Shown piece by piece: positions 853 to 54,307 of a DNA stretch of 64,000 nucleotides. Origin of the DNA: a virus; IMG/VR virus record IMGVR_UViG_3300045946_000018, positions 27,272 to 91,271 of that record. The stretch is one strand, 5' to 3'. The translations under genes were made by a program, and so were the position numbers. A model generated the notes under the pieces. That model worked only from the letters and a program-made list of their open reading frames with translations, ran no database searches and was not told the origin of the DNA. How positions within the stretch are numbered: the first letter of the stretch is position 1; the number at the start of each line of letters is the position of its first letter.

Positions 853-887
853 CGCACAACCGAAGCACAACGTGCGCTGCCTGCCAC

Positions 888-1055
888 CAGCTGCTCTCTG
901 TACTACCAGCGCGGTCGTTTTTCTTCCGAAGGGTGGCGCCTTTTCCCTGCGCGAAGGGAGTGTTTGTCAAGGCACTGCCTCCAGCGAAGCGGCCTTGACA
1001 AGCAAACGACCGAAGTGCTATAATCACTAGCCACCTTGAGGAAAGGAACGAGCTG
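888..1055 (+). promoter_or_regulatory. Structured hairpin element with embedded sigma70 promoter (TTGACA 995-1000, 18 nt, TG-c-TATAAT 1019-1024)
   Basis: Stems 912-920/1004-1012 and 961-973/992-1004; GCGAAGC apex. Confidence 0.7.
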
Positions 1056-1060
1056 TAATT

Positions 1061-2607: not shown

Positions 2608-2816
2608 TAGATGCTGATAGAACACTTATATTACTTAGACAAATAGAATCTCTAAGTAGAGAAGGCAAATTAGTAATTGCTGGATCACTGATAGATGCAC
2701 TATATCCGAAGCCTATTCCCGAAATGGATTTAGATATAGTATTTGCGTGCAAGCAAAAAGTGCTTAGTTGGATAGCACAACAACTAGGAGATAATGATGC
2801 CTTACGTTCCAGCTGA
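2604..2816 (+). CDS. Hypothetical protein
   Basis: GAGG SD, overlaps neighbours in operon style. Confidence 0.5.
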   Translation: MIDADRTLILLRQIESLSREGKLVIAGSLIDALYPKPIPEMDLDIVFACKQKVLSWIAQQLGDNDALRSS

Positions 2817-5280
2817 TGGATCACTCAACTCCAAAATAGCTATTGTTGGCGAGCAGCCGGCAAAGTACGAAGCTAGATACAGCAAGCCATTTACTGGCCC
2901 CGCCGGTCGTAATCTAAATGAGTGTTTGCAGAATGCTCGCATACCACGAGGTGGTTGTTATCTGACGAACGTAGTGAAACAAACTGAGTTTGAATTAGAA
3001 CGCTATTTTAATTTGAAGGGTAAGAATCCTGCCGCGACGCAGCTAGGAAAGGCGTGTATAGAGGAGCTACGTGATGAGCTTATGGATTGTCGCGCTAACA
3101 TCATTGTGCCTCTTGGCAATACTGCATTGTTCGCTCTATGTGATAGAACTGGCATTAATAGTTGGCGTGGAAGTGTGCTTGAGTCTACGCTTTTACCAGG
3201 GCGCAAAGTCATTCCTACATTGCATCCAGCTGTGTATACAGATGAGAAGGTACTACAGAACCCAGCTGCATACCTGGCTAAATATCTAATTACTATAGAC
3301 CTTAAGAAAGTCCGTAGTGAGTCTGAATTTCCGGAGATTCGCTTAGCGGACAGAAGATTGAGGATCCAGCCAAACTTCTATGAAGCGCTTACATGGCTGG
3401 AGCGTTGTAAGGTACGTGCTGAGGATGGTGGAATTGTATACTATGATATAGAGTTAACACCAAAGACCCAAGAACTGAGTTGTATTAGCTTCTGCACATC
3501 GCCCGATGATGTAATGTGCATACCATTTGTAGATGCAAACGGAGACTATTTTACTGCTGAGCAAGAATACAAGCTAATGTTGAGCATTGAAGAATTGCTC
3601 AGCAATTCCAGCTGGATGAAAGGGGGACAGAATATTATCTTCGATTCGCACTTTCTATTACGCAAGTATGGTATACGCACTCGTAATATTGTTGCTGACA
3701 CTATGGTAGCTCAGCATATACTCTACCCAGATTTCGGAGGTAAAACGTACCGTGGAAAATCACTTGAATTTATTACGTCAATGTGGACGGATATACCTTA
3801 CTACAAACGTGACGGAAAGTTGTGGCTCACTGGCATAGGCGACTACGCCAAGGGCTGGAATTATAACTGCCTAGATAGCGCAGTATGCGCTGATGCGTTT
3901 CCTAAACAGCTCACCGAGCTCGAAGAGCGTGGTAATTACGACTCGTATGAGCGACAAATAAAACTCATTGGACCTCTGAGTTATATGATGGAGCGTGGAA
4001 TTAAAGTGGATAAAGAAGGAATGGAGCGAGCGTCCAGAGATGCTTTGTTAGAAGCTGATGAATTAACGCAACAAACGTTCGAGGTTATGGGCAGCTCGGC
4101 CTTTAACCTAAATAGCCCGCAGCAAGTAGCGGAATACTTTTATGGTAAGTGTGGAGTTACACCTTATTTAAATAAGAATGGCAAGCCTACTACAGATGAG
4201 GAGGCATTAACACGCATAGCGAATAAGGGATTTAAAGAAGCTAGTATGATCCTCGAGATTCGACGTTTACGTAAGAAGGCATCAACATTTCTAAATGTCG
4301 AGAACGTTGACGATGATGGTAGGATGCGATGTAGCTACAATCCAGTAGGTACACGATTCTCGCGGATTAGTTCGAGTGCAAATATATTCGGTACTGGTGG
4401 AAACTTACAAAATGTACCACATGATGTACTGAGTTATTACGTCGCAGATTCTGGATACGTAATTTATTCACTTGATATGTCGCAGATTGAGGCGCGCATT
4501 GTCGCGTACGTTGGAAACATCACTCAAATGAAGGAAGTATATGAACAAGGTCTGGATATACACAGACAAACGGGAGCACTCATTTTTAATAAGCCTTACG
4601 ATGAAGTCAGTAACGCACCTGGATCGAGTACCATTGGTAATGGAACTTACAGTGAGCGCGATTGGGCAAAGCGTGCCAACCATGCTTTCAATTACGGTTT
4701 TGGTTACAAGTCTTTCAGCTTGCTATATGAAATCCCTGAAAAAGAAGCTAAGTTCATTTATGATAGATACCATTCTGCTTATCCAGGACTTAGAGGTGGA
4801 TACTGGAAGTATGTAGAAGGGTTGCTTAAGGCAACCCGTACGCTCACTAATCTATTTGGTAGAAGAATTACGTTCCTAGGAAAGCTTGATGATAAATTGC
4901 TCAATGAAGCTTACTCGTGTATACCGCAAGGAACATGTGGAGACCTAGTAAATGAGTGGGGATTGAACTTCGTTTATTATAACTCAGATGCGTTGTTCCA
5001 ACGCGTGGAGCTGTTAACTCAAGTACATGATTCAATTAGTATACAAGTGCCGCTGGATTTGCCACTGATAGATCACGCACGTATCTTGACTGCGATTAAG
5101 CGTTCTCTAGAACAGCCGCTGGAGTTCGGCAGAACCCAGTTTGTCGTGCCTGTTGATCTGGTAGTAAATAGTTGTCTCAACAAGAACAAAGGTATAGAGC
5201 TGAAAGGCACGAAGTTTAGTAATGATCCTCGTGTACTGGAAGTGTATTTACAGGACGCTATTCTAACACTGGGAGTTTAA
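2794..5280 (+). CDS. polA: Family A DNA polymerase with N-terminal uracil-DNA-glycosylase-like domain and 3'-5' exonuclease
   Basis: IVGEQP/PFTGPAG/LHPA UDG motifs; YDIE, NIIFD, YNCLD exo motifs; DMSQIEAR, KRANHAFNYG, QVHDS polymerase motifs A/B/C. Confidence 0.92.
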   Translation: MMPYVPADGSLNSKIAIVGEQPAKYEARYSKPFTGPAGRNLNECLQNARIPRGGCYLTNVVKQTEFELERYFNLKGKNPAATQLGKACIEELRDELMDCRANIIVPLGNTALFALCDRTGINSWRGSVLESTLLPGRKVIPTLHPAVYTDEKVLQNPAAYLAKYLITIDLKKVRSESEFPEIRLADRRLRIQPNFYEALTWLERCKVRAEDGGIVYYDIELTPKTQELSCISFCTSPDDVMCIPFVDANGDYFTAEQEYKLMLSIEELLSNSSWMKGGQNIIFDSHFLLRKYGIRTRNIVADTMVAQHILYPDFGGKTYRGKSLEFITSMWTDIPYYKRDGKLWLTGIGDYAKGWNYNCLDSAVCADAFPKQLTELEERGNYDSYERQIKLIGPLSYMMERGIKVDKEGMERASRDALLEADELTQQTFEVMGSSAFNLNSPQQVAEYFYGKCGVTPYLNKNGKPTTDEEALTRIANKGFKEASMILEIRRLRKKASTFLNVENVDDDGRMRCSYNPVGTRFSRISSSANIFGTGGNLQNVPHDVLSYYVADSGYVIYSLDMSQIEARIVAYVGNITQMKEVYEQGLDIHRQTGALIFNKPYDEVSNAPGSSTIGNGTYSERDWAKRANHAFNYGFGYKSFSLLYEIPEKEAKFIYDRYHSAYPGLRGGYWKYVEGLLKATRTLTNLFGRRITFLGKLDDKLLNEAYSCIPQGTCGDLVNEWGLNFVYYNSDALFQRVELLTQVHDSISIQVPLDLPLIDHARILTAIKRSLEQPLEFGRTQFVVPVDLVVNSCLNKNKGIELKGTKFSNDPRVLEVYLQDAILTLGV

Positions 5281-5283
5281 GAA

Positions 5284-5769
5284 ATGACAAACAAGGAATT
5301 TGCTAGATTCTGTAAATACTTCGTTGTAATGACAGACGACGCAGAACAAAGTCATAGAGTATGCTGGTTATGGATAGGTGCTTTAACGGAGGGATATGGA
5401 TTTCTTAAAGTCAAAGGTAAGAATATAAGAGCACACCGACTTATGTATGAGCACGTATATGGTGAGATAAAGGAAGATTACGTAATACATCATAAGTGTC
5501 ACAACAAGCGTTGTGTAAGCCCGTTTCATCTAGAAATGGTAACACGCGAACATAACGTTAGTGAAGCCCAAACTAAGACACATTGTAAGCGTGGACATGA
5601 GCTATCCGATGATAACGTACATATGTATAGAGACAAATACGGAAAGTTTAGAAGATACTGCAAGAAATGCGCTTCAAATTCAGCACGTAATAGATATGCG
5701 GCTCGTACTTTAGTTGATAAATTAACGGATGAAGATATAGCTAAATTGATGAGTCTAAAAGGAGAATAA
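5284..5769 (+). CDS. HNH endonuclease (free-standing, probably homing)
   Basis: CWLWIG..GYG, RAHR, HHKCHNKRCVSPFHL, THCKRGH; absent at the syntenic position in B. Confidence 0.85.
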   Translation: MTNKEFARFCKYFVVMTDDAEQSHRVCWLWIGALTEGYGFLKVKGKNIRAHRLMYEHVYGEIKEDYVIHHKCHNKRCVSPFHLEMVTREHNVSEAQTKTHCKRGHELSDDNVHMYRDKYGKFRRYCKKCASNSARNRYAARTLVDKLTDEDIAKLMSLKGE

Positions 5770-5771
5770 GA

Positions 5772-6971
5772 ATGGCGAGACACTTGAGTAATTTCCTGGA
5801 TGCTTATCTCTACTTTACCGAAGAAACTGAGCCATGCGAGCTTTACCGCAAGTGGGTAGGAGTCAGCATTATTGCTGCAGCATTGCAGCGGAAATGTTAC
5901 TTGCATTGGGGCTCGCAGATTTGGTATCCTAATCTGTACATAGTATTAACCGGTCCTCCAGGTGAGCCGCGTAAGGGTACAGCTATGGCTTCTGGCTACA
6001 GCATTCTGAGACCGCTCAATCTAAAGCTATCTGCAGACCGACTGTCACCTGAGTATTTTATAAAAGAACTCAGTGCCTCACTCACTACAACGCAGCTGGG
6101 CAATGGTAAGTTTATAAATCACTGCAGTATGACAATCTTCAGCAGTGAGTTGACAGTATTTCTGGGATATAAGAACTCGCAGTTCTTAGCTGATTTAACT
6201 GACTTGTATGATTGTAAGGATCCATGGGCGTACAGGACTAAAAATAGTGGGCACTTTGAAGTAACAGGTGCATGGCTAAATATGTTGGCTGCAACCACAC
6301 CTGAGCAAATACAAGCAGCATTGCCAATTGAAGCAATAGGAGGTGGCTTTGCAAGTCGAGTGTTATTTATATTCGCTGATAGGAGAGGTAAAACTGTCCC
6401 TATGCCAATAGAGAACGAAGAACTTAAGGCGAAATTAAGAAGCGATTTAGAAGAGATTTCGTTGTTAGCTGGTCCATTTGTTGCTACAGAAGATTACATA
6501 CTCACTCGCACTGAGTGGTATTTGAACGAGTCTCAGGAGAACCAAATAATTCAGGATCCAAGATTCGCTGCGTATTATAGCAGGAAAGCGAGCACTGCAA
6601 CAAAGCTCAGTATGATACTCTGCGCGTCACGTAGCGACGATATGAAGCTGAGAGGTGAGGATTTCGTTAACGCAATCGATATGCTTAATGAAGCTGAGAT
6701 ACAAATGCCACGTGCATTAAGTGGCGTTGGTAGGAGTGATTATGCTGAGCTGCTTCCAATGGTAATGGAAGAAATACTGAGACATAAAGAGGTGACTATA
6801 AGGTATTTGATGAACCGATTTTCGCACGATACGACGTACTTCCATTTGATTAAGATGGTAGAAACACTTGAGATTATGGGCGTTTTGAGTTACGCTCCAT
6901 TAACTAAGAAGATATATGCGAATCCTAACTTCGGGAATAGTTCGAGTGGAGAAAGTGCGGTTGTCAATTGA
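5772..6971 (+). CDS. DUF3987-like P-loop ATPase (putative replicative helicase)
   Basis: YPNLYIVLTGPPGEPRKGT Walker-A-like, LTDLYDC, GGFASR; homologue 53123-54283. Confidence 0.65.
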   Translation: MARHLSNFLDAYLYFTEETEPCELYRKWVGVSIIAAALQRKCYLHWGSQIWYPNLYIVLTGPPGEPRKGTAMASGYSILRPLNLKLSADRLSPEYFIKELSASLTTTQLGNGKFINHCSMTIFSSELTVFLGYKNSQFLADLTDLYDCKDPWAYRTKNSGHFEVTGAWLNMLAATTPEQIQAALPIEAIGGGFASRVLFIFADRRGKTVPMPIENEELKAKLRSDLEEISLLAGPFVATEDYILTRTEWYLNESQENQIIQDPRFAAYYSRKASTATKLSMILCASRSDDMKLRGEDFVNAIDMLNEAEIQMPRALSGVGRSDYAELLPMVMEEILRHKEVTIRYLMNRFSHDTTYFHLIKMVETLEIMGVLSYAPLTKKIYANPNFGNSSSGESAVVN

Positions 6972-7115
6972 GGCCGGAAGACTCCGCTGGACCGCTGCTG
7001 ATTATAGCACTTACGTTGCCTAATGCTGTCAAGGACCCGCTACGCTGGGGATCCTTGACAGCGGCAACTCCAGTGCAGAGAGTAGACGCGGTCCGGCGGA
7101 AAAATCTGCCGGCCT
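6971..7115 (-). promoter_or_regulatory. Rod-like hairpin element with minus-strand TTGACA (7027-7032), 20 nt, TATAAT (7001-7006)
   Basis: Nested stems 6971-77/7109-15, 6983-95/7088-7100, 7025-35/7052-62; GCGTAGC apex on minus strand. Confidence 0.7.
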
Positions 7116-7184
7116 GGAAGTATGGAGAGTTGCTGGCAGCCGCACTCCCGTTGGTCGTGAGTATGGTTAAAATCTAACCATAAA

Positions 7185-10100
7185 CTATCTTCTCTCACGT
7201 CTCTCTGAGCGTTCACGTCTCGCTCCTCTTGTTGGCTCCTGCGAATACCAGCCCATCAAACTGTCGTAAACATTCTCACCGCGCTTTTGTGCTCTAGTAA
7301 ACTTACTTATTTGACGGGTGCCAGGTACACCTAAAAGTGTAGCTGTTGGTTCCCACCACGGCGGGCTGAGTGGATCATTTCTGTAGGCGCGTGCAGCATC
7401 TCGTGCTGTTTCTATTGCAGGCCCGGCTATTCCTTTACCGTACCTCATGCCACCTATAATAGGCAGTCTCTCTATTTGTCCTACCGCCAAATCAAGCGCA
7501 AGTTGTGGTAGTGAATGTCTAGCCTGCATTCCTTTCCGCACATCTTCAACAGGATCAGGTAACGCTGGTTGAATGTGCAGCAGTTTGTACAACTCGTTAA
7601 TGATCTGGGTGATGATGAGGAATCCAATTACGTTGCGCATAAATCTCATATTACTGCGTGGTGCTCCAGGCTCTTCCCAACTGCCAGGACCACTGGCTAC
7701 TCCACCTGGAGGTATCTGCCCACCACCTCCACCACCAATCTTACCTTTAGTGAGCACTTCGTCTCGCAGGAAATTGAAGTCACTAATCAAGAACGTCTGG
7801 AATTGCGTGACAAGTTTACCTAATGGGTTACGCTGTATGCCTGCAAGATCGCCTGGCATCGTACTTCCTTGCGTACGCACCACAAGATCGTCTGCGTAGC
7901 GTACAGCATCCTTATGATTGTATCCGACCTTCGGACTCGTGGCGAACTTGTAGCCGGCGTTCCACGTAACAAGTGCAGCTTCCATATCCAGCAATTCAAT
8001 CAGCTTGAATCCTGGCCGGCCAACCATTTGCTGCAGTTCAGCTAAGTTACCTCTGCCTAAGGCACGAAATAATTCTCCTGGTCGTCTACCTACGAATGCA
8101 CTAGTAACTTCATTGTAGGCATCAATGAACTTACGTGAGCTGAGTATCTCACTGTTACGTAATGCGAAATCCTTCTTCTTGCCTAGTGGTAAATCGGCTA
8201 ACATCTCGAATGCTGATCCTAGTGTCTTTGGTATACCAAGTGTTTGGCTAGTATTTACCAATGTAGACAGCTGGATTGTACCTGATCTTATAAGCCCAGA
8301 TAGTGTAGCGTACGCAACGTTCTTGTTGACAGTATTTAGTATCATCCGCTGCGTTGCAGTGAATTGCTTGTTTGTACCGGTTGCAATATAGTCAGTCCAG
8401 TTACGTAGCTCTTCATACAGGCCTGGTTTATTGTCCTTAAGTTGCCACGTCTCTTTACCAGTAACAGGATCAGGTAAGTTAGTTTCAATAAGCTCATGCA
8501 TCTTCGCAATGAATGGACTCATGTGAATGTCCTTCAGCGCCGATTGAGCATAAGTATCAAGTATTTTTAGTGCGTTCATTTCGGCCGTGTAGAATGCATG
8601 CTTGCGTACAATGTACGGGAAGTTTGTTGCTCGATGTTTGATGTACTTTGCGTGCACAGAATCGGAAGTATCGCGGGCAAGATCTACTTTAATACCAAGC
8701 GCATTCAGCACGTTTATTGTGCGCGCGAAGGTTTGGTAGTCATCCACTCGTGCAAGTGGCTCACGTCCAGTTGCAGCACGTACTTCATTTACTCGATTAT
8801 ATAAGTAAGCATAAACACCATCAAGATTTGCCTGCAATCGCCGCTCAGCAGAAGTAAGCGGCTGAGGTGTGACCTTATTATATGTAAGTATTCGTTGCCC
8901 GTCTCCACCTTGACGCGCATAACCATTAGCGCCAATATTCTCTAGTGATTTTGAACTGAAGCCACGACCTAATTCTTCCATATCTGCGTGTAAAGTATTC
9001 AGCTCGGCATTCAGGTTCTTTTGTGCAGTGCGATACGCATAGTAGAGAAATTCTGTACCTGCTGCTTTGTGCTGGCGCAATGGTAGCTTTAAGTTCCACT
9101 CACCACCACCCGGCTTAATGTCACGTGCATTCTGAATGCCTCGCACCTCACTCTGCCACAAAGGTACGTACGTATTGCCACTTGCAACGCGCTGCTTAAC
9201 AACTCTATCTCCTGGAATTACGTTCTCAGGATCGAAGCGCATATTACGCGGATTCGTTGAGTTTGGAGGTTCAGGATTATTGATACCTTCTAGGTACCGC
9301 TCAAACATTGCTACATCTTCAGGACGTGCACCAAACAGAAATTCTCGTACGTTCTTTCCTGCCTTACGCATATCAGCTTGCAATCGCTGAGCGGCCATAC
9401 GTGCTTCACGAGACCAGTTACCTCCTATTGCACCTTCCTCACCAAGCATAGTATTCACATCATTCAGTATATCTATGAACGCCCTACGCTCAGACGTGTC
9501 AATGCCAGCTCTTGCTGATTCGCGCATAGCTTTGTAGTGAGGTATCAAATCAGCCGGCAATTTATCTGTAATATCCACGCCTTGCTCTATAGCACGTAAC
9601 ATTTCTTCTATTTGTTCCGGACCAATAGGTGATGTTTTACTCTCAACGTATGCACCTGCAGCGTCCTTAGAAATCGGGACAGCTCGTAGATCGTCACCAC
9701 TGTTAAGACGAGCATCAGTCCTGACAACGTCCTTAGGAACGAGTTCATAGTTCCTGCCCTTCATTACGTATAAATCAAGGTCATTCTCTGCAGCAACACG
9801 AGTTGCTTCACGTATCAGTTCTTGGCCAGTAAACTCATGTGCACGCTCGATTGGTAGACCAGTAAAATCAGCTTGTGCTTGTAAGGAACGTTTTAATACC
9901 TGCCCTAATTCAGGGCTCGTTCTTCCTCGCTGTATCTCAAGCTCAATATTTGCAAGTGATGTACGGGCGTTCATTCCTCTAGTATCAACGAAAATAGCAT
10001 CAGGCCTGCCTTCTATAGTACGTACTTGTATTGGTGCTGATGATATAAGCTCTGTGTACTTAAAGGGTAATATAGATGCCTTAGCACTGGGTTCTAAATT

Positions 10101-12722
10101 AGTAACGGATTTTATTTCAGTGAAACCAACATTCGTGACTACAGGACGGGTATATGCATAGTAAGCTGTATCCGCCGTACGTCTTGCTACATCTTCAGGC
10201 AGTCCCATACTGATAAGAGTTTGTCTCAGTTGTGATGGTCGCACTCCTTTACTAAAAGCATCCATGACGTCGGCCAGATTCATGCCTATTTGCTGCAGTG
10301 TTTCTTGAATTTCTTCTTTAAATGACTCTACATTCTTACGCACGGCGCGTTCTTCAAAAACGCTTTGTTCTGCTGCGGCACGTGATTCTGGAGTACTTGT
10401 CTCATATATAGGTCTACGAGTGGGCCTATTTATAAGAGGCTCTGTATCTGGCGCTTTCACTACCTTACGTTTACGTTTAGGCTTCTCAATGACAGGAGAT
10501 GTATCTATTACTGGTTCTGCAGGTGCAGGTATTTCTACTTCAGTTCCTGCCGGTGCGTTTTCTAGTACAGCTTCAGTTGCTGCTTGCTGAACAGCTGGCT
10601 TATTGACGGTATAATAACGAGTGTAATTACCTTGCTTTACTTGAGTTATACTACCTTCATTCAGAAGATTTTGAATTGCTTCATTAACTTCACTACGTGC
10701 AAACCCCACTCTATTTACTATAGCTTGTATTGTAGCCCCACCTTCCCGAGATAGAAAATCCCTCACTGCTCCACTAACATCTGAAACTGGCATTTCAGAT
10801 AGCTCAGATAAACTGCTCTCCACAATTCCTCTTTCAGACTTCGCAGCGCGTACTTTTTTAAGTTGTGGTATTAACTCCTGAATTGTTTCCTCATCTACAC
10901 CAAGCTGCCGTAATCCACGCTCTACGCTTTTCGCGTCAGTATTAAGAGCTTCACGTTTCAAGTTTGCTAACGACGTTTTACGATCAGCTGGACTTGTTTC
11001 CTCATTTTGAATTGCTTCTATTGCCGCGAACGCAGGCCCTCTATATTCAGTGCGAGTAGGAGTTATTACTTCTGGAGCCGTAGGCGATACCGCAGCTACT
11101 GCTGGAGTCTCGGGTGAAACTGGTGCTGGTACAGTTTCAGGAGCAACAGTAGCTGCAGCCTCAACACGTGGTGTTTCGATAGGTGCAATTTCACGAGTCG
11201 GTCTTGGTGCCTCAGGCGTAACAGGAGCTAAAGCTGTCTCACCTCGCACTACAACTTCAGGCTGCACTGGCCGCTCAGCAGTCATAGTTGGTGCTGCACG
11301 CTGAGGTTCAGGTGCGCGTTGAGCTTGAGGCTCAGCTGACCTTGGTGCTTCAGGTGTAGGAGCAGCAGGTCTTGCAGCTTCAGGCGTTGGTGTTGGGCGC
11401 GTAGGCTCAGCAGGAGCTCTAGGTGTACCTTGTGGTTTAGGTACGCGGCCTAAGCGCTCTCGTAAATCCGTCATGATACTGCCTCTATTTGGATCAGCTG
11501 CCCATTCATCCGTTACACGATCTAGCTCTGATTTGTACGCACGCAATTCAGCTGGATCATATACTATATCTGCAGCAGCTCCACCACCAGCTGGCCCTTC
11601 ATCCGGCGGCTTAGGTCCTCGTGGTGGCATGCCGACTTCACGATCAGCTTCATCTCTAAACTTTCCACGAGCTTCTTCAAGCGCGTTATTTAGTCGAGGA
11701 TTTTTTGATGCTGCATTCGCAAGATCTTCTGCAGCTGCTGCGGCTTGCGCGTCAGTTGTAGCACGTGACATACGAGTTTTGTATTCAGCAATCTTTGAGC
11801 GTATTTCTGGAGCAGCTTTGCGTACGCCCTGATCTAGCTTGTAGAATAGATAAAGTTCAGTGGCAAAGCTAAGCACTCGAGCTGTATCCTCGTTAAGTAC
11901 GCCTGTTGCCACAAGTGCGCGACCAGGTAGTTCAGCTACATCCTTAATTAAACCGGTTACAGTGCCTACAGCTTTATTTACGTTCTTTGCAATATCTGAG
12001 CGTGGTTCAGGAGTTAGTGACGTAATGCGCTGATCCATTCGGTTGAATATATCACGGTAATGAGTTTTACTTTCGGGCCCACCGGCCATTGGTCCGCCAC
12101 GTGCAACACGTGCAAGTTGAGTATTCAAAATATCGCTAACTGCAGTTGCAGCACCAAATGCAAATGCTCCAGCACCGGCGAGTACATTACCACCAGCTTC
12201 GGCAATATCGCGCACAAAATTCGTGGATCGTTGCAGCGTACCATATAATCCAGGAGAGTATTGTCGCGTCGGCGTTGCTCCTGGTGCTCCAGGCTGAAGG
12301 TCACGTCTGCTAGTATAACGCTGTGACTCTGGAGCTTGAGTAGGAACTGTGCGAATTCCACTAAAACTTCCAGTGCCGGTATATTCGCGTGTTGTATCTG
12401 GTACTAATTTTTCAGCTACCGATCCAATAGCTGAACCAACATCACTTGCTATTTTGCCAGGATCTATACTAGGTAGATAGCCAGAAATTCCTGTGCCTGA
12501 TGGTTCTGCAGGCGGCACGTATTGAGGCGGCAATTGACCAGGGCTGAGCCTCTGCTCAGCGGGTAAGCCGCTATTATAGTTATTTAATAATGCTTCATTC
12601 AAGTCCGGCTTCTTAGGAGCAAGCGGCGTTTTGCCTATTCCTAAGCGTCCAAGTAATTCTTCATTTTCTGGCTCACCTTGAAGAAGGTAGCGTTCTACGT
12701 CAATAGGTGCGACTGTTGACAT
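7185..12722 (-). CDS. Large putative internal virion / DNA-ejection protein (1845 aa)
   Basis: Last gene of structural operon; Pro/Ala-rich linkers; C-terminal ADD.V..TQGS...R...G....QFQTF shared with 54335-59521. Confidence 0.65.
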   Translation of the reverse strand: MSTVAPIDVERYLLQGEPENEELLGRLGIGKTPLAPKKPDLNEALLNNYNSGLPAEQRLSPGQLPPQYVPPAEPSGTGISGYLPSIDPGKIASDVGSAIGSVAEKLVPDTTREYTGTGSFSGIRTVPTQAPESQRYTSRRDLQPGAPGATPTRQYSPGLYGTLQRSTNFVRDIAEAGGNVLAGAGAFAFGAATAVSDILNTQLARVARGGPMAGGPESKTHYRDIFNRMDQRITSLTPEPRSDIAKNVNKAVGTVTGLIKDVAELPGRALVATGVLNEDTARVLSFATELYLFYKLDQGVRKAAPEIRSKIAEYKTRMSRATTDAQAAAAAEDLANAASKNPRLNNALEEARGKFRDEADREVGMPPRGPKPPDEGPAGGGAAADIVYDPAELRAYKSELDRVTDEWAADPNRGSIMTDLRERLGRVPKPQGTPRAPAEPTRPTPTPEAARPAAPTPEAPRSAEPQAQRAPEPQRAAPTMTAERPVQPEVVVRGETALAPVTPEAPRPTREIAPIETPRVEAAATVAPETVPAPVSPETPAVAAVSPTAPEVITPTRTEYRGPAFAAIEAIQNEETSPADRKTSLANLKREALNTDAKSVERGLRQLGVDEETIQELIPQLKKVRAAKSERGIVESSLSELSEMPVSDVSGAVRDFLSREGGATIQAIVNRVGFARSEVNEAIQNLLNEGSITQVKQGNYTRYYTVNKPAVQQAATEAVLENAPAGTEVEIPAPAEPVIDTSPVIEKPKRKRKVVKAPDTEPLINRPTRRPIYETSTPESRAAAEQSVFEERAVRKNVESFKEEIQETLQQIGMNLADVMDAFSKGVRPSQLRQTLISMGLPEDVARRTADTAYYAYTRPVVTNVGFTEIKSVTNLEPSAKASILPFKYTELISSAPIQVRTIEGRPDAIFVDTRGMNARTSLANIELEIQRGRTSPELGQVLKRSLQAQADFTGLPIERAHEFTGQELIREATRVAAENDLDLYVMKGRNYELVPKDVVRTDARLNSGDDLRAVPISKDAAGAYVESKTSPIGPEQIEEMLRAIEQGVDITDKLPADLIPHYKAMRESARAGIDTSERRAFIDILNDVNTMLGEEGAIGGNWSREARMAAQRLQADMRKAGKNVREFLFGARPEDVAMFERYLEGINNPEPPNSTNPRNMRFDPENVIPGDRVVKQRVASGNTYVPLWQSEVRGIQNARDIKPGGGEWNLKLPLRQHKAAGTEFLYYAYRTAQKNLNAELNTLHADMEELGRGFSSKSLENIGANGYARQGGDGQRILTYNKVTPQPLTSAERRLQANLDGVYAYLYNRVNEVRAATGREPLARVDDYQTFARTINVLNALGIKVDLARDTSDSVHAKYIKHRATNFPYIVRKHAFYTAEMNALKILDTYAQSALKDIHMSPFIAKMHELIETNLPDPVTGKETWQLKDNKPGLYEELRNWTDYIATGTNKQFTATQRMILNTVNKNVAYATLSGLIRSGTIQLSTLVNTSQTLGIPKTLGSAFEMLADLPLGKKKDFALRNSEILSSRKFIDAYNEVTSAFVGRRPGELFRALGRGNLAELQQMVGRPGFKLIELLDMEAALVTWNAGYKFATSPKVGYNHKDAVRYADDLVVRTQGSTMPGDLAGIQRNPLGKLVTQFQTFLISDFNFLRDEVLTKGKIGGGGGGQIPPGGVASGPGSWEEPGAPRSNMRFMRNVIGFLIITQIINELYKLLHIQPALPDPVEDVRKGMQARHSLPQLALDLAVGQIERLPIIGGMRYGKGIAGPAIETARDAARAYRNDPLSPPWWEPTATLLGVPGTRQISKFTRAQKRGENVYDSLMGWYSQEPTRGARRERSERRERR

Positions 12723-12898: not shown

Positions 12899-12971
12899 GA
12901 TCAGCGGCACTAGGGCTCCCGTTGGTCGCAGCTTCATCTCCAGCTATGGTTAAAATCTAACCGTAACAATC

Positions 12972-14000
12972 TTACTCTTTGGGCCTGAGTTTCCAGGGTA
13001 TCGGCTGCTTTAAGCTTGGATAAAATACTTGCTCAAGGTATTGTTGCACGTTCATTGCGCCACTAGGGTAATTCTGAGCTGCGTCATAAACCTCTTGGGC
13101 CGTATAGCGATGACCATCTACAGTAGGCAAATCTATCTTCTTCATTCGAGTACCTGAATAGATGCGGCCAGGATTATCCTCAAAGATATACACGTACGGC
13201 TGTTTGCTTGTCGCATGAAACAGCTCAGCTTCAGGTGCTAATTCACTCTCATCGTACGAGTTCTGTAGTGCATAGCCACCAGGTCTCTTCGAGCGTAGAT
13301 TCTGTTCTGCATCTGTTGCTACTTTCATCTCAGTGCGAGCATCCGTGCGCGCTTTAGCTATTTTCTCTGCACGCTCTTTCTCGAGCTGCATCATCTTCTG
13401 TATATTCTCGTTACGCTCTTGAGCAAGTGTCATTCCTTTGGCTGAGAACTCCTGACCACCGATCTTCAGCTTTACGTATTCATCATTCTGTTTATCTAGC
13501 AGTGCAGCCTCTCTCGGATACAGTTGACGGATGCGCTCAGCATTGGCATTGCTGGCATTAACAGCTGCCATACTTTGCTCAATATTAGCTCGTATGTTCT
13601 GCTTCTCTAAACCGAGCAGCTCAGTAACGCGGTTTGATTGTGCTTGATACAGGCCTGTCTGTGCACGCTCCTGTGCAACGCGTTCTGGCAACAGTGTTTC
13701 GGTACTGATTCGCTGAGCACGACTCGCACCAGCTGCTTCACGTGACTGGTCAATATCCGCAAGCATCTTAGCGGCAATGTGAGGCTCTTCTGCACGTAAC
13801 CGTGCTGCCTGCGCTTTATTCAAATCACCTGAAGTTTCACGGTACGCAATCTCACTTTGTACATTACGTGCCTGTATAATGTCCTGCACGCTGCGTAGTC
13901 GCAGTGCTTCTCGTTCTGTGTCGAGTCGGCCCATAGCTGCAACCTGTTCTGGATTAAGCCCCGCAAGACTTCCACTTTCAAATCCTCCGGGGCTTAGTAG
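12972..14000 (-). CDS. Putative ejection protein, C-terminal part, probably reached by -1 frameshift from 13994-14554
   Basis: Frame open from the slippery site to ATG 13934; AGLNPEQ upstream of the ATG is conserved as AGLTPEQ in B. Confidence 0.7.
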   Translation of the reverse strand, partial: LLSPGGFESGSLAGLNPEQVAAMGRLDTEREALRLRSVQDIIQARNVQSEIAYRETSGDLNKAQAARLRAEEPHIAAKMLADIDQSREAAGASRAQRISTETLLPERVAQERAQTGLYQAQSNRVTELLGLEKQNIRANIEQSMAAVNASNANAERIRQLYPREAALLDKQNDEYVKLKIGGQEFSAKGMTLAQERNENIQKMMQLEKERAEKIAKARTDARTEMKVATDAEQNLRSKRPGGYALQNSYDESELAPEAELFHATSKQPYVYIFEDNPGRIYSGTRMKKIDLPTVDGHRYTAQEVYDAAQNYPSGAMNVQQYLEQVFYPSLKQPIPWKLRPKE

Positions 14001-14006
14001 AAAGGG
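13955..14006 (-). promoter_or_regulatory. -1 programmed ribosomal frameshift signal
   Basis: C CCT TTC (14006-14000) in frame 0 then 9-bp stem taagccccg/cggggctta with inner extension. Confidence 0.8.
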
Positions 14007-14554
14007 GCAATATCTAGTATGCTGGGATCACGTCTAGCTGCAGCAGTTCTTATTGGTGCTGGTGCATTAGTTACGGGAACTGGAGCCGTAGTAGCTGGAG
14101 TAATCACGGGTGCTGTCTGTGTACGTGCAGGTGGCTGAGCTGGTGCTACGTTAGTCGGTCTGGTTGCTGCAATGTCACGAAGCGTATTTGAGAATGCACC
14201 GTACTCCGGCGTGCTCGTAATATTTCGTGGCTCAGGCAAGTTGAGGTCGAATGTGTACGAGCCAGATGGCGTTGCCTTAACGCTGTTCAGACCAGGACGG
14301 TCTGGCTTCGTGATGCCACCGTGCAAGTCAATAAGCTGTTTAATTTGTGCTGATCGCGCCGCGTCGCGTTTCTCGATGGCAGATTGAGCGGCTTTACTGC
14401 TAATCATATTTGCAGCGGCGGTACCAATTACTCCACCTGCACCCTCAGGGTCCATTTGCCTACCCATGTTCGCGAGCAGTAACTGGAAGTTGGGATCACT
14501 TAACATACCGCTAAAACTCCACGGTTGCTGTGTGGCTGCTGAACCTTCTGCCAT
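13994..14554 (-). CDS. Putative internal virion protein (short frameshift product)
   Basis: MDPEGAGGVIG matches MDPRGAGGILG in 60760-61869; both end D..PF. Confidence 0.7.
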   Translation of the reverse strand: MAEGSAATQQPWSFSGMLSDPNFQLLLANMGRQMDPEGAGGVIGTAAANMISSKAAQSAIEKRDAARSAQIKQLIDLHGGITKPDRPGLNSVKATPSGSYTFDLNLPEPRNITSTPEYGAFSNTLRDIAATRPTNVAPAQPPARTQTAPVITPATTAPVPVTNAPAPIRTAAARRDPSILDIAPFY

Positions 14555-14617: not shown

Positions 14618-14769
14618 CTCTCTTGGTACTTCCCACCGCCGCAGCCTTTCCGATCGGGCCACCCATCCCTTCCACAGCGTAGGGTAGCGCTTGTCAAGCA
14701 TCCCAGCGGAGCGGATGCTTTACAAGCAAGCGTACCGAAGCGACAATCCCACGGGTGGCACGAGAGGAG
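14618..14769 (+). promoter_or_regulatory. Structured hairpin element, same family as 888-1055 (TTTACA 14719-24, 17 nt, GACAAT 14742-47)
   Basis: gcttgtcaagcatcc/ggatgctttacaagc stem, CCAGCGGAGCGG apex, gccaccc/gggtggc helix. Confidence 0.65.
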
Positions 14770-14777
14770 CTAAGGCG

Positions 14778-15083
14778 CTAAAACAATACATCGCCTACAA
14801 CTAGCGTACCCTTTGAGCTATGATCAGACCACGGATTAATTGCTACATATAATTGCCACCTGTATGTGCCAGCAATGTTCAATACTCCTGCCTCTACTAC
14901 GTACTCAACACGTCCGTCAGTTCCATCCGTAATATTAGTGAGCGGCTTTACTACCTGCGTGCCATCAGGCTTCACTAACTTTACTTGTTTAGAGCCAGCT
15001 GTAGATACGTCTAGTGTTTCACCATTATCTAGTACTGTCCAACGTAGCTTCACACCTACAGCATTTTTATGAATGTCGTACAT
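14778..15083 (-). CDS. Small structural protein (BppU-like beta fold)
   Basis: LVKPDG..TDGTDGRVEY....G.L..AG.Y; homologue 62063-62365. Confidence 0.6.
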   Translation of the reverse strand: MYDIHKNAVGVKLRWTVLDNGETLDVSTAGSKQVKLVKPDGTQVVKPLTNITDGTDGRVEYVVEAGVLNIAGTYRWQLYVAINPWSDHSSKGTLVVGDVLF

Positions 15084-27980: not shown

Positions 27981-28158
27981 GCACCAAACATTTTTTCCGG
28001 CTCCTGGAATTTAGCATAATTCCTTTGACAGATTGCGTGCACAGCAAGCAAGGCGACGTCCAGCTCCGCTGCCCGTCCAGATGGAAGCTGTGCACGGGAA
28101 CTGGGAGCAATCTGTCAAAGTGATGCTAAATTCCAAACCAGAAAAAATGGAATGGTGC
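27981..28158. repeat. Rod-like hairpin element, family 2 (with 41882-42049)
   Basis: tggaatttagcat/atgctaaattcca, ctttgacagattgc/gcaatctgtcaaag, gtgcacagc/gctgtgcac. Confidence 0.85.
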
Positions 28159-36795: not shown

Positions 36796-37069
36796 ATAAC
36801 CTCAAATTATGCTTCCGCATTGGGAAGTAAGTAGAGGTTCCAACAGTATCATCGTAGCCCCGCGAGTGGTCTCGGAGCATAGATGCGCTGTACCATAACC
36901 AGGTGCTAACCCGCGGTAGGTGCCTACGGTCATCGCCTCCTCCCGTTGGTCGTCGGCTTGCTGTACCAGTAGCGAAGGTCTCTTGGGAGTAATTTCCAAT
37001 TTAAAATTTATCCACTGCAGGATCATTTCGCTTATCCTTTTCCAGTGGCGGGGTCGCCTACTGGCGAAA

Positions 37070-41881: not shown

Positions 41882-42049
41882 GCCCAAACATTTTTTTGGA
41901 GCCTGGAAATGTGTACTTTAACCTTGAATCGCCTTGCAGCACGGAATAGACCGTCCGGCTTCGCCGCCCGGCCAAACGCTGTGCTGCTGCGGCCTTCGGC
42001 TGCGCGATTCAAGGCGTACACATTTCCTATCCAAAAAAATGGAATGGGC
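41882..42049. repeat. Rod-like hairpin element, family 2
   Basis: ggaaatgtgtac/gtacacatttcc, ccttgaatcgc/gcgattcaagg, gcagcac/gtgctgc; termini shared with 27981-28158. Confidence 0.85.
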
Positions 42050-43696: not shown

Positions 43697-44074
43697 ATGA
43701 AACACGGCGATAAACAATGGGTTAGGCACGCGTTATCATTACGCGATATGCTAGATGAACAAAGTTTGGAGTATGTTATAGCACGTGCTCTAGCTAATTA
43801 TAACCCGGTAGGATTTAAATATTCTCCTACCGAAGTATTAAATTGTTCTTATTGTGATTTTGCAGCAACACAAATAGACCATGTACCACCGCTGAGTTAT
43901 GTGCGTAATTTATTGCGCTCTGAAGCTTATATGAGGTATTTCGAATTAGATTTATTATTGTATCCAGCTTGTTCTTCGTGTAATTCCATATTGGGTGATT
44001 TACCAATATTTAATTTGGAAGAAAGGAGGAATTATATTAAGCATTTCATTCGTGGAACACTTAGGGGTTCATAA
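43697..44074 (+). CDS. HNH endonuclease-like protein
   Basis: CSYC...IDHVPP...ACSSCNS. Confidence 0.75.
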   Translation: MKHGDKQWVRHALSLRDMLDEQSLEYVIARALANYNPVGFKYSPTEVLNCSYCDFAATQIDHVPPLSYVRNLLRSEAYMRYFELDLLLYPACSSCNSILGDLPIFNLEERRNYIKHFIRGTLRGS

Positions 44075-44221
44075 ATTACGGGCACTTGACAACGCACAAA
44101 GAATTGCTGCCACGCTTCCGAGCGACGAGGAGCTTTAGCTCCTCACAGCTCTGTTCCGCAGCAATTCGCGTTGTCAGGTGCTGAGCGAAGCTCAAGTAAT
44201 TTATGGGGGTCCCCTTGGTGT
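44057..44221 (+). repeat. Rod-like hairpin element, family 3 (with 59549-59717 inverted)
   Basis: agggg/cccct, cataaattac/gtaatttatg, gcacttgacaacgc/gcgttgtcaggtgc, gaattgctgc/gcagcaattc; GCGAAGC side hairpin. Confidence 0.85.
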
Positions 44222-44312: not shown

Positions 44313-44418
44313 CTTAAGTATAAATTAGATAAACAATTTAACTCTGGAGGTGATTATAGCACAGCTCGGATGTGCCTAATTTCTATTTTATTTAACCTTT
44401 AATTGCGGAGCAATTAAA

Positions 44419-50635: not shown

Positions 50636-53113
50636 ATGCCTAGTACATTTGTACCGCCGAGCGGACGCCTGGATGCACAATTCGTTATTATTGGTGAGCA
50701 GCCTGGTAAACAAGAAGTGCTGCGTGGTCAGCCATTTGTTGGTCCAGCAGGAGAAAATTTAAATGAGTGCTTACATGCAGCGGATATATTACGCAGTAAG
50801 TGTTACTTAACTAATGTGGTAAAAGATTTCGATCATCCACTTAAATATTATTTCCCCACTTTAATCGGAGGTAAAAAAGAGAAAGTTGAAATAAGTGCTG
50901 CGGGATACGAATATATAAATAAATTGCGCCAAGAATTGGCGCAGACCTCAGCCAATGTAATAATTCCATGTGGGAATGTGGCACTATATGCGCTAACTAA
51001 TCGCGTTGGTATAACCAACTGGCGTGGTAGCATATTAGAATCCACACTTCTACCCGGTAGAAAAGTTATTCCTACATTCCACCCTGCTACTTATACACAA
51101 GAGAAATTATACGCCGAACCAGAGAACTATTTAAATAAGTATTTAATTATACTTGATTTAAAGAAAGCTCTGCGCGAAAGTTATTATCCAGAAATACTCA
51201 ACACTCCACGTAAGCTACATACTAAGCCTGATTACCATGATGTATTACTTTACTTACAACGATGTAAGGTTGCTGGCTATGGCGGTATCACTATATGGTT
51301 TGATATTGAACTTACACCTAAAACACAAGAGTTATCCTGCATAAGTTTTACTTTAAGTGATGGCGAGTGTATGTGTATACCATTTGTCGATTCGAAAGGA
51401 GATTATTGGGACAGCGAGCAAGAAATGATAATAATGAAACACATAGCTGATTTACTAGGTAATCCTGAAATTAAGAAAGGTGGACAAAATATTATATTTG
51501 ATTCGCATTTCCTTTTGAAGAAGTACGGCATCCGTACTTCTAATTTAGATGACACGATGATAGCACAGAAAATATTGTACCCTGAATTTCGCGTCGGGTT
51601 AAACTTTATTACCGCGATGTGGACTGACATTCCATATTACAAGGCTGAGGGTAAAATTTGGTTGGAAGGTACAGGTGAATATCAGCGTGGTTGGGAATAT
51701 AACTGCTACGATTCGTTTAGTTGTGCAAGTGCATTCCCACGCCAATTTTTAGAATTACATGACAGGGGAAATATTGGCGCATATTTCTCCAAGAGAAATG
51801 TTATTGAGCCATTCACCTATATGATGGAACATGGAATTAAAGTTGATTTACAGGGTATGAGCCTCGCACGAGACACCAATAAACAACAGCTAGAAATGTT
51901 AGAAGAAAAATTTAAATCCCACGTTGGTGCGGATATTAATATTAACTCGCCAAAACAATTAATGGATTATTTCTATGTTAAGTGTGCTGTCCCTCCGTAT
52001 ATGGAGGAACAAAAACTAACGACAAATATTCGGGCACTCCATCATATAAAACGTAGTGGACATTGTGTAGAAGAATGCGATATATTACTCCAATATCGTA
52101 AACTACATAAACAGCTCGGCACATATTTAAATTTAGAAAACGTGGACGCGGATGGTAGAATACGCTGCTCGTATAATCCCGTTGGCACCAAGTATGGCCG
52201 AGCAAGTAGTTCTAAAAATATATTTGGCACAGGTTTAAATCTACAAAATGTTGCGCCTGAAATGGCGGAATACTTAATTGCTGATGATGGGTACATTATT
52301 TATTCCATGGATTTATCCCAATATGAAAATCGTATTGTTGCGTACGTTGGTCAAATTCCTGAAATGGTACGCGTATTTGAGGAGGGTTTAGATTCGCATA
52401 GAATGACCGGGAGCTTGATATTTAATAAGCCCTACGAGTTAATTAGCGATGAACCAAACTCTTGTTCCATCGGCAACGGCGATGGAAGTGAACGCGATTG
52501 GGCTAAGCGATGTAATCATGCGTTTAATTATGGAATGGGATGGCGTAGAATGAGTCAGCTGTATGAAATACCTGGTAACGAGGCAAAATGGTTGCACTCT
52601 GCCTACCATAAAGCCTACCCACGCTTAGAACACGGCTATTGGAAACACGTACAAGATTCGCTTAAATCAAATCGAACAACTCGAAATTTATTGGGTCGGC
52701 AAATAATGTTTCTTATGCCTTGGGGAGATAAAATGTTACACAACGCGTATTCTAGTATTCCACAATCGACATGTGCGGATGTAATTGATTCGCGCGGCAT
52801 TGCCTTCACGTATTACAACGAGGCCCCGCACTTCCGAACGGTAGAATTGTTGACTCAAGTACATGATTCAATTGCATTTCAAATGCCCCTATCGACGCCA
52901 ATAATCGATCATGCTAAAGTAATTCTAGATATAAAGGCTTCGCTAGAAACACCTCTTGTTTGGCATAGCCAAACAATAAATACTCCAGTTGATTTGGTTG
53001 TGGGTAAAAATTTGAATAAACGTTCAAATTATTCGAAGAAAGTTAGCTTGATTAATACGAATATAGATGCACTGGCGTATGCGCTAAAGGAGACACACAT
53101 GAAACTTACTTAA
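50636..53113 (+). CDS. polA: UDG-like / 3'-5' exo / family A DNA polymerase
   Basis: IGEQPG, FHPA; FDIE; DLSQYENR, KRCNHAFNYG, QVHDS. Confidence 0.92.
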   Translation: MPSTFVPPSGRLDAQFVIIGEQPGKQEVLRGQPFVGPAGENLNECLHAADILRSKCYLTNVVKDFDHPLKYYFPTLIGGKKEKVEISAAGYEYINKLRQELAQTSANVIIPCGNVALYALTNRVGITNWRGSILESTLLPGRKVIPTFHPATYTQEKLYAEPENYLNKYLIILDLKKALRESYYPEILNTPRKLHTKPDYHDVLLYLQRCKVAGYGGITIWFDIELTPKTQELSCISFTLSDGECMCIPFVDSKGDYWDSEQEMIIMKHIADLLGNPEIKKGGQNIIFDSHFLLKKYGIRTSNLDDTMIAQKILYPEFRVGLNFITAMWTDIPYYKAEGKIWLEGTGEYQRGWEYNCYDSFSCASAFPRQFLELHDRGNIGAYFSKRNVIEPFTYMMEHGIKVDLQGMSLARDTNKQQLEMLEEKFKSHVGADININSPKQLMDYFYVKCAVPPYMEEQKLTTNIRALHHIKRSGHCVEECDILLQYRKLHKQLGTYLNLENVDADGRIRCSYNPVGTKYGRASSSKNIFGTGLNLQNVAPEMAEYLIADDGYIIYSMDLSQYENRIVAYVGQIPEMVRVFEEGLDSHRMTGSLIFNKPYELISDEPNSCSIGNGDGSERDWAKRCNHAFNYGMGWRRMSQLYEIPGNEAKWLHSAYHKAYPRLEHGYWKHVQDSLKSNRTTRNLLGRQIMFLMPWGDKMLHNAYSSIPQSTCADVIDSRGIAFTYYNEAPHFRTVELLTQVHDSIAFQMPLSTPIIDHAKVILDIKASLETPLVWHSQTINTPVDLVVGKNLNKRSNYSKKVSLINTNIDALAYALKETHMKLT

Positions 53114-53122: not shown

Positions 53123-54283
53123 ATGGACTGGCTAACAGATTATTTACGCCTAACCGACAACACTGAACCGCCAGAAATATTTAGACGGTGGGTTGGCATT
53201 TCATGTTTGGCCAGTGTGCTACAACGAAAGGTATACTTGCCTCGCAGCGATGATTTGGTAATTTATCCAAATCTCTATATCGTGTTAGTCGCGCCACCTG
53301 GCAAAGCGCGCAAAGGAACGAGTATGAAAGTGGGATTTAAATTGTTAACTGAACCCGCTATGCAAGTCGTTCTCTCTGCCGAGGCAACTACGCGTGAAGC
53401 GTTGATTCGATCTTTGAATAATGCTAGACTGTTTTATCGGAATGAAGATGGTCTTGAAACTCCACACTCTAGTCTAACAATTTATTCACCTGAACTCGCG
53501 GTATTCCTCGGTAATGGCTCCACACAAATGTTCTCGGATTTAACTGATTGGTATGATTGCCGCGATATTTGGAACTATGAAACGAAACAGCGTGATACGA
53601 GTGATTCAATCGTAAACGTGTGGGTAAATATGATTGGCGCAACTACACCCGCATTAATACAGAAAACCATACCTCCGGATGCAATTGGGGGTGGGTTAAG
53701 CTCTCGAATAATATTTATCTACGCGAATCGAAAAGGTAAAATTGTACCAAATCCTCGTACCACTGAATTGGAACGTGAACTTCGAGCAGAATTATTGACG
53801 CGACTTGAGGAGATTCATTTACTTACTGGACCATTCGCTACTACACCAGCATATGATGAACTTTGGGATAAATGGTATACAAGTGTGGAAGATAATCCAC
53901 CATTCCAAGATGATAAATTTGCTGGTTATTTCGAACGTCGGCCAGAGATGGTGTTAAAATTGTCTATTATTATGCACGTATCGCGCGAAGCTAGTATGAT
54001 TATTGATGATATAGATTTGGCATTGGCAATTAAAACGCTCGAACATGCCGAGGTACATATGCCTAAAGCACTACGCGGCGTTGGACAAAACTCGTATGCA
54101 ACTGTAATTGCTAGAGTAATTGAAGTAGTTTCGCGCGCTGGTTCGATAAAGTACGGCGAGTTGTTGGGATTATTTTTGGATGATGTTATGCCACATGAAT
54201 TCGATGATATATTGGTGTCACTTGAGAAAACTGGTTGCTTAAATTGGTTTCAGAATACAGGGGAGATTAGATTAGCGGATTAG
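53123..54283 (+). CDS. DUF3987-like P-loop ATPase (putative helicase)
   Basis: YPNLYIVLVAPPGKARKGT; homologue of 5772-6971. Confidence 0.65.
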   Translation: MDWLTDYLRLTDNTEPPEIFRRWVGISCLASVLQRKVYLPRSDDLVIYPNLYIVLVAPPGKARKGTSMKVGFKLLTEPAMQVVLSAEATTREALIRSLNNARLFYRNEDGLETPHSSLTIYSPELAVFLGNGSTQMFSDLTDWYDCRDIWNYETKQRDTSDSIVNVWVNMIGATTPALIQKTIPPDAIGGGLSSRIIFIYANRKGKIVPNPRTTELERELRAELLTRLEEIHLLTGPFATTPAYDELWDKWYTSVEDNPPFQDDKFAGYFERRPEMVLKLSIIMHVSREASMIIDDIDLALAIKTLEHAEVHMPKALRGVGQNSYATVIARVIEVVSRAGSIKYGELLGLFLDDVMPHEFDDILVSLEKTGCLNWFQNTGEIRLAD

Positions 54284-54307
54284 GTTCCAGTGTTAAAATT
54301 TTAAATC

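Follow-up and report, generated by a model that had tools for sequence, protein, structure and literature searches.

A hairpin with consensus sigma-70 promoter boxes between convergent phage operons, tentatively read as a fold-back promoter

Host RNA polymerase uses fold-back (hairpin-form) promoters both for transcription and for priming (PMC11541004, PMC9849209, PMC4595007, PMC12672017), and those known so far come from DNA that enters or replicates in single-stranded form, namely conjugative plasmids, rolling-circle plasmids and filamentous phages. Among tailed double-stranded DNA (dsDNA) phages, the hairpin promoters found in the open-access literature are those of N4 alone, which are read by N4's own polymerase, and the open-access papers yielded no report of a sigma-70 fold-back promoter family in tailed phages. 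Herein, we describe an imperfect palindrome of 145 nucleotides (nt) at positions 6971–7115 of a 64,000-nt stretch (the window) of the IMG/VR virus record IMGVR_UViG_3300045946_000018 (positions 27,272 to 91,271 of that record). All positions follow the numbering of the window, which holds one phage (phage A) and, in its right part, a related phage (phage B). On its minus strand the palindrome carries perfect TTGACA and TATAAT boxes, and we tentatively read it as a fold-back sigma-70 promoter of the Frpo/sso kind whose RNA is non-coding and probably a primer, a reading to which we give a little less than an even chance. The priming step, taken by itself, is doubtful.

Frpo/ssi elements are single-stranded promoters of the leading regions of F, ColIb-P9 and pESBL (Masai and Arai 1997, as cited in PMC9849209, PMC11541004 and PMC12672017). 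The comparison with them rests on published descriptions, and the -35 and -10 boxes of F Frpo are not readable unambiguously from its sequence. As in Frpo/ssi, a long imperfect hairpin of one strand would here rebuild the -35 and -10 on its descending arm for the host sigma-70 polymerase, with the boxes on the strand that serves as template beyond the hairpin base, and a role in primer synthesis is proposed for both. Frpo boxes lie on the template (transferred) strand and point away from the genes in the duplex map; similarly, four paralogues of the present element have their boxes opposite to the adjacent genes. Unlike Frpo/ssi, the carrier here is a tailed dsDNA phage and not a transferred single strand, the apex contains the -35 and a GNA mini-hairpin instead of an A+T-rich UP element, and the -10 is TGn-extended, with no gene downstream of the 6971–7115 copy. 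Strand-specific folded promoter-like sites that give rise to a short non-coding primer RNA are also described for the single-strand origins that depend on RNA polymerase (sso; ssoA, ssoU and others, in rolling-circle plasmids and ICEBs1) and for the minus-strand origin of filamentous phages (PMC4595007). The filamentous-phage likeness extends to an inovirus contig, described below, which has the same bulged 20-nt design after zot. However, the sso replicons have a full-length single-strand stage, and no rolling-circle initiator is evident beside 6971–7115; an sso role for this family is suggested by analogy.

Reading of both strands confirmed that the minus strand has TTGACA at 7032–7027, then a spacer of exactly 20 nt, then TATAAT at 7006–7001, just as had been stated in an earlier reading made from the letters alone (the sequence-only reading). 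The spacer (7026–7007, minus strand) reads GC-ATTA-GGCAAC-GTA-AGTGC. Folded as single-stranded DNA (ssDNA), both strands form the 145-nt hairpin, with energies of -46.5 kcal/mol for the minus strand and -47.1 kcal/mol for the plus strand. The z-scores were -7.7 to -9.1, none of 200 shuffles was equally stable, and in a sliding 160-nt fold this hairpin was the deepest anywhere in the window. In the minimum-energy structure of the minus strand, the arm opposite the spacer has 16 positions between the two boxes, TATAATCAGCA stands opposite GTCTACTCTCT across an 11 × 11 internal loop, and about 23 more base pairs follow between this -10 bubble and the hairpin base. The fold confirms the earlier observation that ATTA bulges out and that TATAAT faces mismatched bases. 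The parts of the element, from the 5' end of the minus strand, are as follows.

6971–7115, minus strand taken as the folding strand: the whole imperfect palindrome of 145 nt, with the fold energy and z-scores given above
7088–7115, minus strand: basal 5' arm, which pairs with 6971–6995
7077–7087, minus strand: non-complementary face of the -10 bubble, GTCTACTCTCT, which would be the template strand when folded
7025–7062, both strands: apical inverted repeat GCTGTCAAGGA / TCCTTGACAGC, which gives each strand a TTGACA (plus-strand copy at 7055–7060)
7039–7045, minus (box-bearing) strand: apex mini-hairpin GCGTAGC with a GNA triloop; the plus strand reads GCTACGC
7027–7032, minus strand: -35 hexamer TTGACA, fully paired with TGTCAA in the apical stem
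7007–7026, minus strand: 20-nt spacer, made up of GC, the 4-nt bulge, a 6-bp helix, a 3 × 3 loop and a 5-bp helix
7021–7024, minus strand: 4-nt bulge ATTA inside the spacer; ACTA instead in the homologue of relative G002 and in contigs L128 and L185 (see below)
7001–7009, minus strand: TGn-extended -10, TGcTATAAT, of which the TATAAT part is unpaired in the 11 × 11 internal loop
6971–6995, minus strand: basal 3' arm, downstream of the -10, which pairs with 7088–7115

The window has two box pairs of the form TTGACA-N14-21-TATAAT, where 0.21 would be expected, and two were not attained in any shuffle. A 14-mer of the -10 region, AAGTGCTATAATCA, recurs in a perfect TTGACA-18-TATAAT promoter at 995–1024 (P995), which heads a plus-strand operon and is followed by an ATG at 1062. 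The P995 region (880–1060, plus strand) reads TTGACA-18-TGcTATAAT, with the -35 within a 10-bp inverted repeat of apex GCGAAGC; its spacer pairs with 910–917, and the homologous element in G002 is at +29491. Megablast of positions 5000–9000 against phage and plasmid collections gave no match, and neither did blastn of the hairpin against phages and 72,556 plasmids. Neither the gathering thresholds nor E<=10 gave a match to an Rfam covariance model, and tRNAs were likewise absent.

A homologous element was detected when the hairpin was searched for in four complete relatives. It lies in G002, whose helicase is 80% identical to that encoded next to the hairpin in phage A, at a different locus, directly after the stop codon of a conserved 184-aa gene (68% identical to the window's open reading frame (ORF) 42–578). 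The G002 homologue, TTGACA-GC-ACTA-GTGACC-TGTA-GTGA-TATAAT, is read antisense to the genes around it; its spacer is again 20 nt long, its 4-nt bulge is placed identically, and its TGaTATAAT faces mismatches. When the central helices of the two sequences were aligned, 97.7% of the cells were paired, compared with 23–44% in slid controls; both members differed in five of the 22 pairs, and no pair differed in a single member. These compensating changes, from a comparison of two sequences, suggest that the structure is maintained by selection. Together with the inovirus and Desulfobacteraceae contigs described next, they lend comparative support to the idea, put forward in the sequence-only reading, that folding corrects the spacing. 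Further IMG/VR pattern scans returned the elements already found and one unrelated AT-rich promoter (L255).

The same design was found in other carriers. On the plus strand of a 10.9-kb inovirus contig (L128, 6262–6410), TTGACAGC with an ACTA bulge and a 20-nt spacer forms a hairpin of -57 kcal/mol directly after zot. It is on the coding (packaged) strand, the orientation required of a minus-strand origin, and this hairpin is a candidate minus-strand origin of the inovirus. In a Desulfobacteraceae contig (L185), a DnaG-like gene is preceded by an element with TTGACAGC, the ACTA bulge, TGcTAAAAT and a spacer of 20 nt. Folding gave the same spacing correction in L111, L128 and L185; elements with spacers of 19–22 nt had 16–18 nt opposite, and a 17-nt element had no bulge. 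AYTAG followed the searched pattern in three inverted-repeat matches (L132, L128 and L185), against about 0.5 by chance (hand estimate).

The apical repeat GCTGTCAAGG...CCTTGACAGC by itself is widespread, with matches in more than 120 bacterial contigs and six viral contigs. Among the bacterial inverted-repeat matches, 46 of 119 had -10-like boxes, against about one third by chance (hand estimate); at this near-chance rate, most of them are probably unrelated hairpins, not promoters. GCGNAGC was present in 24 of 88 distinct loops of these matches against 1.8 expected, and its strand agreed with that of the better -10 in nine cases, was opposite in five and tied in nine, which is not consistent. 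Several such hairpins per genome (L134–L253) were seen in a Rhodospirillales metagenome-assembled genome, Candidatus Latescibacter and Lachnospiraceae/Oscillospiraceae.

Within the clade, the element belongs to a family. TGTCAAG-loop-CTTGACA inverted repeats followed by a -10 occur at least 11 times in the window and in relatives G001, G002 and G004, and each copy is a hairpin of 120–150 nt whose -10 lies in an internal loop and whose basal arm (CCAGGCCGG...TTTTTCC) is common to the family. Four of the 11 have boxes opposite to the adjacent genes (14719 in the window, 42320 in G001, and 19032 and 28865 in G002), and one, at 6971–7115, has no gene on either side. A near-continuous duplex from -35 to -10 was confined to the 20-nt class, whereas members with spacers of 17–18 nt had large asymmetric spacer loops. 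The genes around the 14719 element (14620–14790, plus strand), which has TTTACA-17-GACAAT and the apex GCGGAGC, are all on the minus strand. The element has a homologue in G001 at +42320, and RNA from its folded form would be sense for the gene 13994–14554.

Whether such hairpins form as DNA or as RNA was approached through their loops and pairs. The apex of the box-bearing strand is GCGTAGC at 6971–7115, GCGAAGC at 995, GCGGAGC at 14719 and GCGAAGC at G002 28865, and CCGTAGG or ACGTAGT in others. Loops of the GNA or CCGTAGG type are present in 9–10 of the 11 members, and the strand that holds them is always the one with the boxes, even where the flanking genes run the other way. Only 0–3 G-T pairs were counted among the approximately 50 pairs of each element, on either strand, and typical selected RNA helices are not so poor in G-U pairs. 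Such scarcity is more in keeping with selection for pairing in DNA than in RNA. For G002-28865 and 14719, moreover, there is no upstream gene whose transcript would contain the folding strand. Mini-hairpins of the sequence GCGNAGC have an exceptional stability in DNA (melting temperature 76.5 °C) and a much lower one in RNA, and GNA loops occur at the ssDNA priming sites of G4 and ssiA and in the N4 hairpin promoters (PMC13037366). N4, like the present phage, is a dsDNA podovirus, and its early promoters are DNA hairpins with GNA triloops that are extruded from the duplex (PMC4496689, PMC13037366); however, N4 hairpins have 5–7 bp and are read by the virion RNA polymerase, whereas the boxes here are host sigma-70 consensus. 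Taken together, the GNA loops, the scarcity of G-T pairs, the two untranscribed folding strands and the Rfam result favour a structure formed by DNA.

On this basis, the element may work as follows. A fork, a displaced strand or an extruded cruciform would leave the minus strand single-stranded and free to fold, with the GCGTAGC mini-hairpin as the nucleus. The apical stem would rebuild a duplex -35, the ATTA bulge would cut the 20-nt spacer to about 16 helical positions, and TATAAT would be pre-melted inside the bubble. With the 5' arm as its template, host RNA polymerase would transcribe rightwards in plus sense from about 7088–7092, as promoter geometry suggests, and the resulting RNA would prime synthesis of the complementary strand. 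In the duplex mode, transcription is predicted to start near 6994–6996. The analysis shows the anatomy, its conservation with compensating changes, the recurrence of the design in an inovirus and the strand-specific GNA loop; that the hairpin folds in the cell, that RNA polymerase uses it, which way its RNA runs and that this RNA primes are inferences.

The element lies where two operons converge and points at no gene, as the sequence-only reading had noted: no plausible gene was found downstream in either direction, RNA would be antisense whichever way it ran, and no cargo gene begins at the 3' end of this copy with a Shine-Dalgarno sequence and start codon. The models Toprim_2, Toprim_4, DnaG_N, Prim-Pol and AEP primase had no match in the four relatives, which are 100% complete, and matched the control genomes. 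Since the RNA would encode nothing, in a clade without a detected primase, it would most likely be a primer, which is also the role the sequence-only reading had proposed. A wider proposal, which we regard as rather unlikely, is that a tailed dsDNA phage clade of primase-less appearance gives priming and some gene expression to host RNA polymerase through dispersed fold-back promoters, and that the class with a 20-nt spacer and a 4-nt bulge, shared with filamentous phages, is a dedicated priming site active in single strands only. If the element itself works by the mechanism described, a tailed phage would replicate without a primase of its own, and the promoter designs of podovirus, inovirus and plasmid would be linked by one trick, the spacer-correcting bulge. 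The 6971–7115 element would be a compact switch, amenable to testing.

The genes and other features around the hairpin are listed below.

5772–6971, plus strand: gene of a 399-aa DUF3987 protein, labelled 'primase' in PHROGs; its stop codon abuts the hairpin
7164–7178, plus strand: motif GGTTAAAATCTAACC, between the hairpin and the gene of the 1845-aa protein, found also beside homologous hairpins in relatives
7185–12722, minus strand: gene of an 1845-aa virion or ejection-type protein, convergent with the DUF3987 helicase gene

DUF3987 proteins are SF6/MCM-like replicative helicases that are usually accompanied by a primase (PMC4889955). The protein of phage A consists of the DUF3987 domain alone and has no solved relative, and no RNA polymerase domain was found in the 1845-aa protein. 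The plus-strand genes encode a ParB-methylase, a family-A DNA polymerase with a UDG-like N-terminus (2794–5280, the N-terminal domain being of the UDG superfamily), an HNH endonuclease and the DUF3987 protein. The HNH endonuclease gene is free-standing (5284–5769) between the polymerase and helicase genes of phage A and is absent from phage B, in which the polymerase gene (50636–53113) directly precedes the helicase gene (53123–54283). The closest named phages are PaP2/119X-like podoviruses and a Desulfofustis phage. The DUF3987 protein of phage B is 40% identical to that of phage A, and the equivalent gap of phage B (54284–54334) has merely a 9-bp hairpin and then a T-rich run (minus strand), in agreement with the short terminator that had been noted there. 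At 6971–7115 no U-tract follows the hairpin on either strand, and the hairpin was not among the terminator-like sites; a canonical or intrinsic bidirectional terminator was rejected for lack of a U-run on both strands.

We further collected approximately 100 loci around the helicase gene from metagenome and IMG/VR scans, about 76 of which were usable. Among relatives with 80% helicase identity, the gap between the helicase gene and the big virion gene is hypervariable: L082 has some 30 nt there, L002 and L005 have some 190 nt of other structured DNA, and L006 has a small ORF. In G002 the gap holds an extra gene (L004 3722–4390, minus strand), whose product ends in NRRVEI at the C-terminus and, judged by eye, is presumably OmpA-like. 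A lost homologue of this gene at the slot in the window was considered and found unsupported, the G002 gene having a non-hairpin promoter of its own. A conserved junction hairpin was likewise rejected; the best among the relatives reached -31.8 kcal/mol, against -47 here, and had no promoter boxes. The sequence that follows the hairpin in phage A resembles that which follows the stop codon in L082, and the hairpin thus looks like a discrete insertion.

Several of the findings weigh against the fold-back promoter with a primer RNA. Extended -10 promoters (TGnTATAAT) of E. coli and other bacteria need no -35. With TGcTATAAT at 7009–7001, the element resembles them and could work without its -35, so initiation from the duplex should be possible; the claim of the sequence-only reading, which overlooked the TGn, that the promoter is off in dsDNA is therefore unsafe. 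An extended -10 promoter, for its part, leaves the conserved perfect TTGACA at 20 nt and the conserved bulge unexplained. Six of the 11 family members are ordinary sense promoters with a ribosome-binding site and an ATG just past the hairpin, P995 and the big virion gene promoters of G002 and G004 among them, and the spacers of these six pair with irregular, asymmetric loops. With such a share of sense promoters, an orphaned promoter cassette stays a serious rival. Ordinary Okazaki priming would need more than the three to five sites present per 45 kb. None of the approximately 76 relatives has a hairpin comparable to this one, or promoter boxes, downstream of the helicase stop codon, and no copy was found in three of the four complete ones, which shows that the element is dispensable. 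Terminase, major head and tail-fibre genes further along mark a tailed dsDNA phage, with no obligatory single-stranded stage, and host primase could serve it; a divergent primase, or use of host DnaG, may lie behind the primase result. The nearest-neighbour folding energies showed no strand bias, the box strand being the more stable in six of 11. There is also no sequence similarity to Frpo/ssi, and F Frpo2 differs in sequence and apex.

The serious rival is a cassette made of an ordinary duplex promoter and a stem-loop, left as an orphan in a hypervariable slot whose cargo gene was lost or never gained, which we judge to be on the unlikely side. Its model is PeSL (promoter-early stem-loop) of T4-type phages (Arbiol et al. 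2010, PMC2839356), in which a strong sigma-70 promoter is fused to a stem-loop that overlaps the boxes, and which is likewise repeated in intergenic gaps, at hypervariable slots with gene gain and loss. Such cassettes would insulate transcription units and act as recombination sites in the clade; the TGn-extended -10 would fire leftwards in the duplex and cover the 3' end of the helicase gene with antisense RNA, which may be regulatory or just tolerated, and the hairpin itself would stop read-through between the convergent operons. The combination of strong sigma-70 promoters, stem-loops over boxes and gene shuffling is documented (PMC2839356), and the 11 copies in the window and its relatives do combine a strong sigma-70 promoter with a stem-loop in a cassette that is repeated between genes. 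The six sense promoters, including those of the big virion genes in G002 and G004, fit such cassettes, as do the 14-mer around the extended -10 that is common to P995, which clearly drives genes, and a helicase/big-gene gap that is wholly different among close relatives. However, PeSL stems are short G/C runs and terminators, whereas the whole promoter lies here in a 120–150-nt hairpin with a -10 bubble, and the 6971–7115 copy lacks a Shine-Dalgarno sequence and ATG, is oriented against the neighbouring gene and has no U-tract on either strand. Moreover, a decaying orphan would not keep perfect boxes, nor would its 20-nt spacer and 4-nt bulge recur, with compensating changes, in a copy at a second locus, or in an element of an inovirus; the GNA loops track the promoter strand and not the flanking transcription, and a 20-nt spacer is a poor design for a duplex promoter with a perfect -35.

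The other explanations are less probable. In a transcription-primed duplex origin of the T7, T4 or ColE1 kind, RNA from the orphan promoter would form an R-loop and prime the leading strand, with the palindrome aiding unwinding. A promoter that points at no gene directly after the polymerase-helicase module, in a clade where no primase was found, would suit this, and R-loop origins are established in phages (PMC3016281). Such an origin should be conserved in position, but the element is absent from the junction in about 76 relatives and lies elsewhere in G002; an AT-rich unwinding element downstream is lacking, and the bulge and bubble are left unexplained, which makes this origin quite improbable. 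At the RNA level, the long near-perfect helix with a central bubble could be a read-through hairpin that RNase III cleaves, that stabilises a 3' end or that acts as a 6S-like open-promoter decoy, and read-through from the big gene would indeed yield a minus-sense hairpin RNA. We hold this to be very improbable, since Rfam has no match even at the relaxed threshold, G-U pairs are almost absent, the loops are GNA triloops and not GNRA or UNCG tetraloops, no upstream gene transcribes the folding strand of G002-28865 or 14719, and the perfect DNA promoter boxes are left unexplained. That the element is a functionless palindrome with promoter-like hexamers by coincidence is scarcely believable: the boxes do total just 12 nt, and bacterial inverted repeats show -10-like boxes at about the chance rate, but two perfect box pairs against 0.21 expected, the compensating changes in G002 and a family of 11 members stand against it.

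Further structured or repeated sequences were observed in the intergenic DNA. The motif GGTTAAAATCTAACC (variant GGTTAAAAGTCAACC) is present at 7164–7178, 12947–12961 and 834–848, 50–110 nt from hairpin promoters. It is kept in L002, L005, L006, L082, L110 and L111, and in G002 it lies within the spacer of a TTGGAT-18-TATAAT promoter. Its counterpart in phage B is TTAAAATTTTA, at 54293, 59745 and 59828. An exact 13-mer, CTCCCGTTGGTCG, occurs three times (7145–7157, 12916–12928 and 36940–36952), each time adjoining structured intergenic DNA. In phage B, GTGCTATAATCAC (44350–44362, minus strand) lies in an AT-rich gap and points at a long hairpin at 44063–44217 and at no gene. That hairpin is one of four more long hairpins of -41 to -46 kcal/mol (28005–28135, 41890–42040, 44063–44217 and 59565–59705), three of them in phage B, in which the layout is reversed and the ascending arm bears TTGACA or TTGAAT. 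The hairpins at 44063–44217 and 59565–59705 share flanking sequence in inverted orientation.

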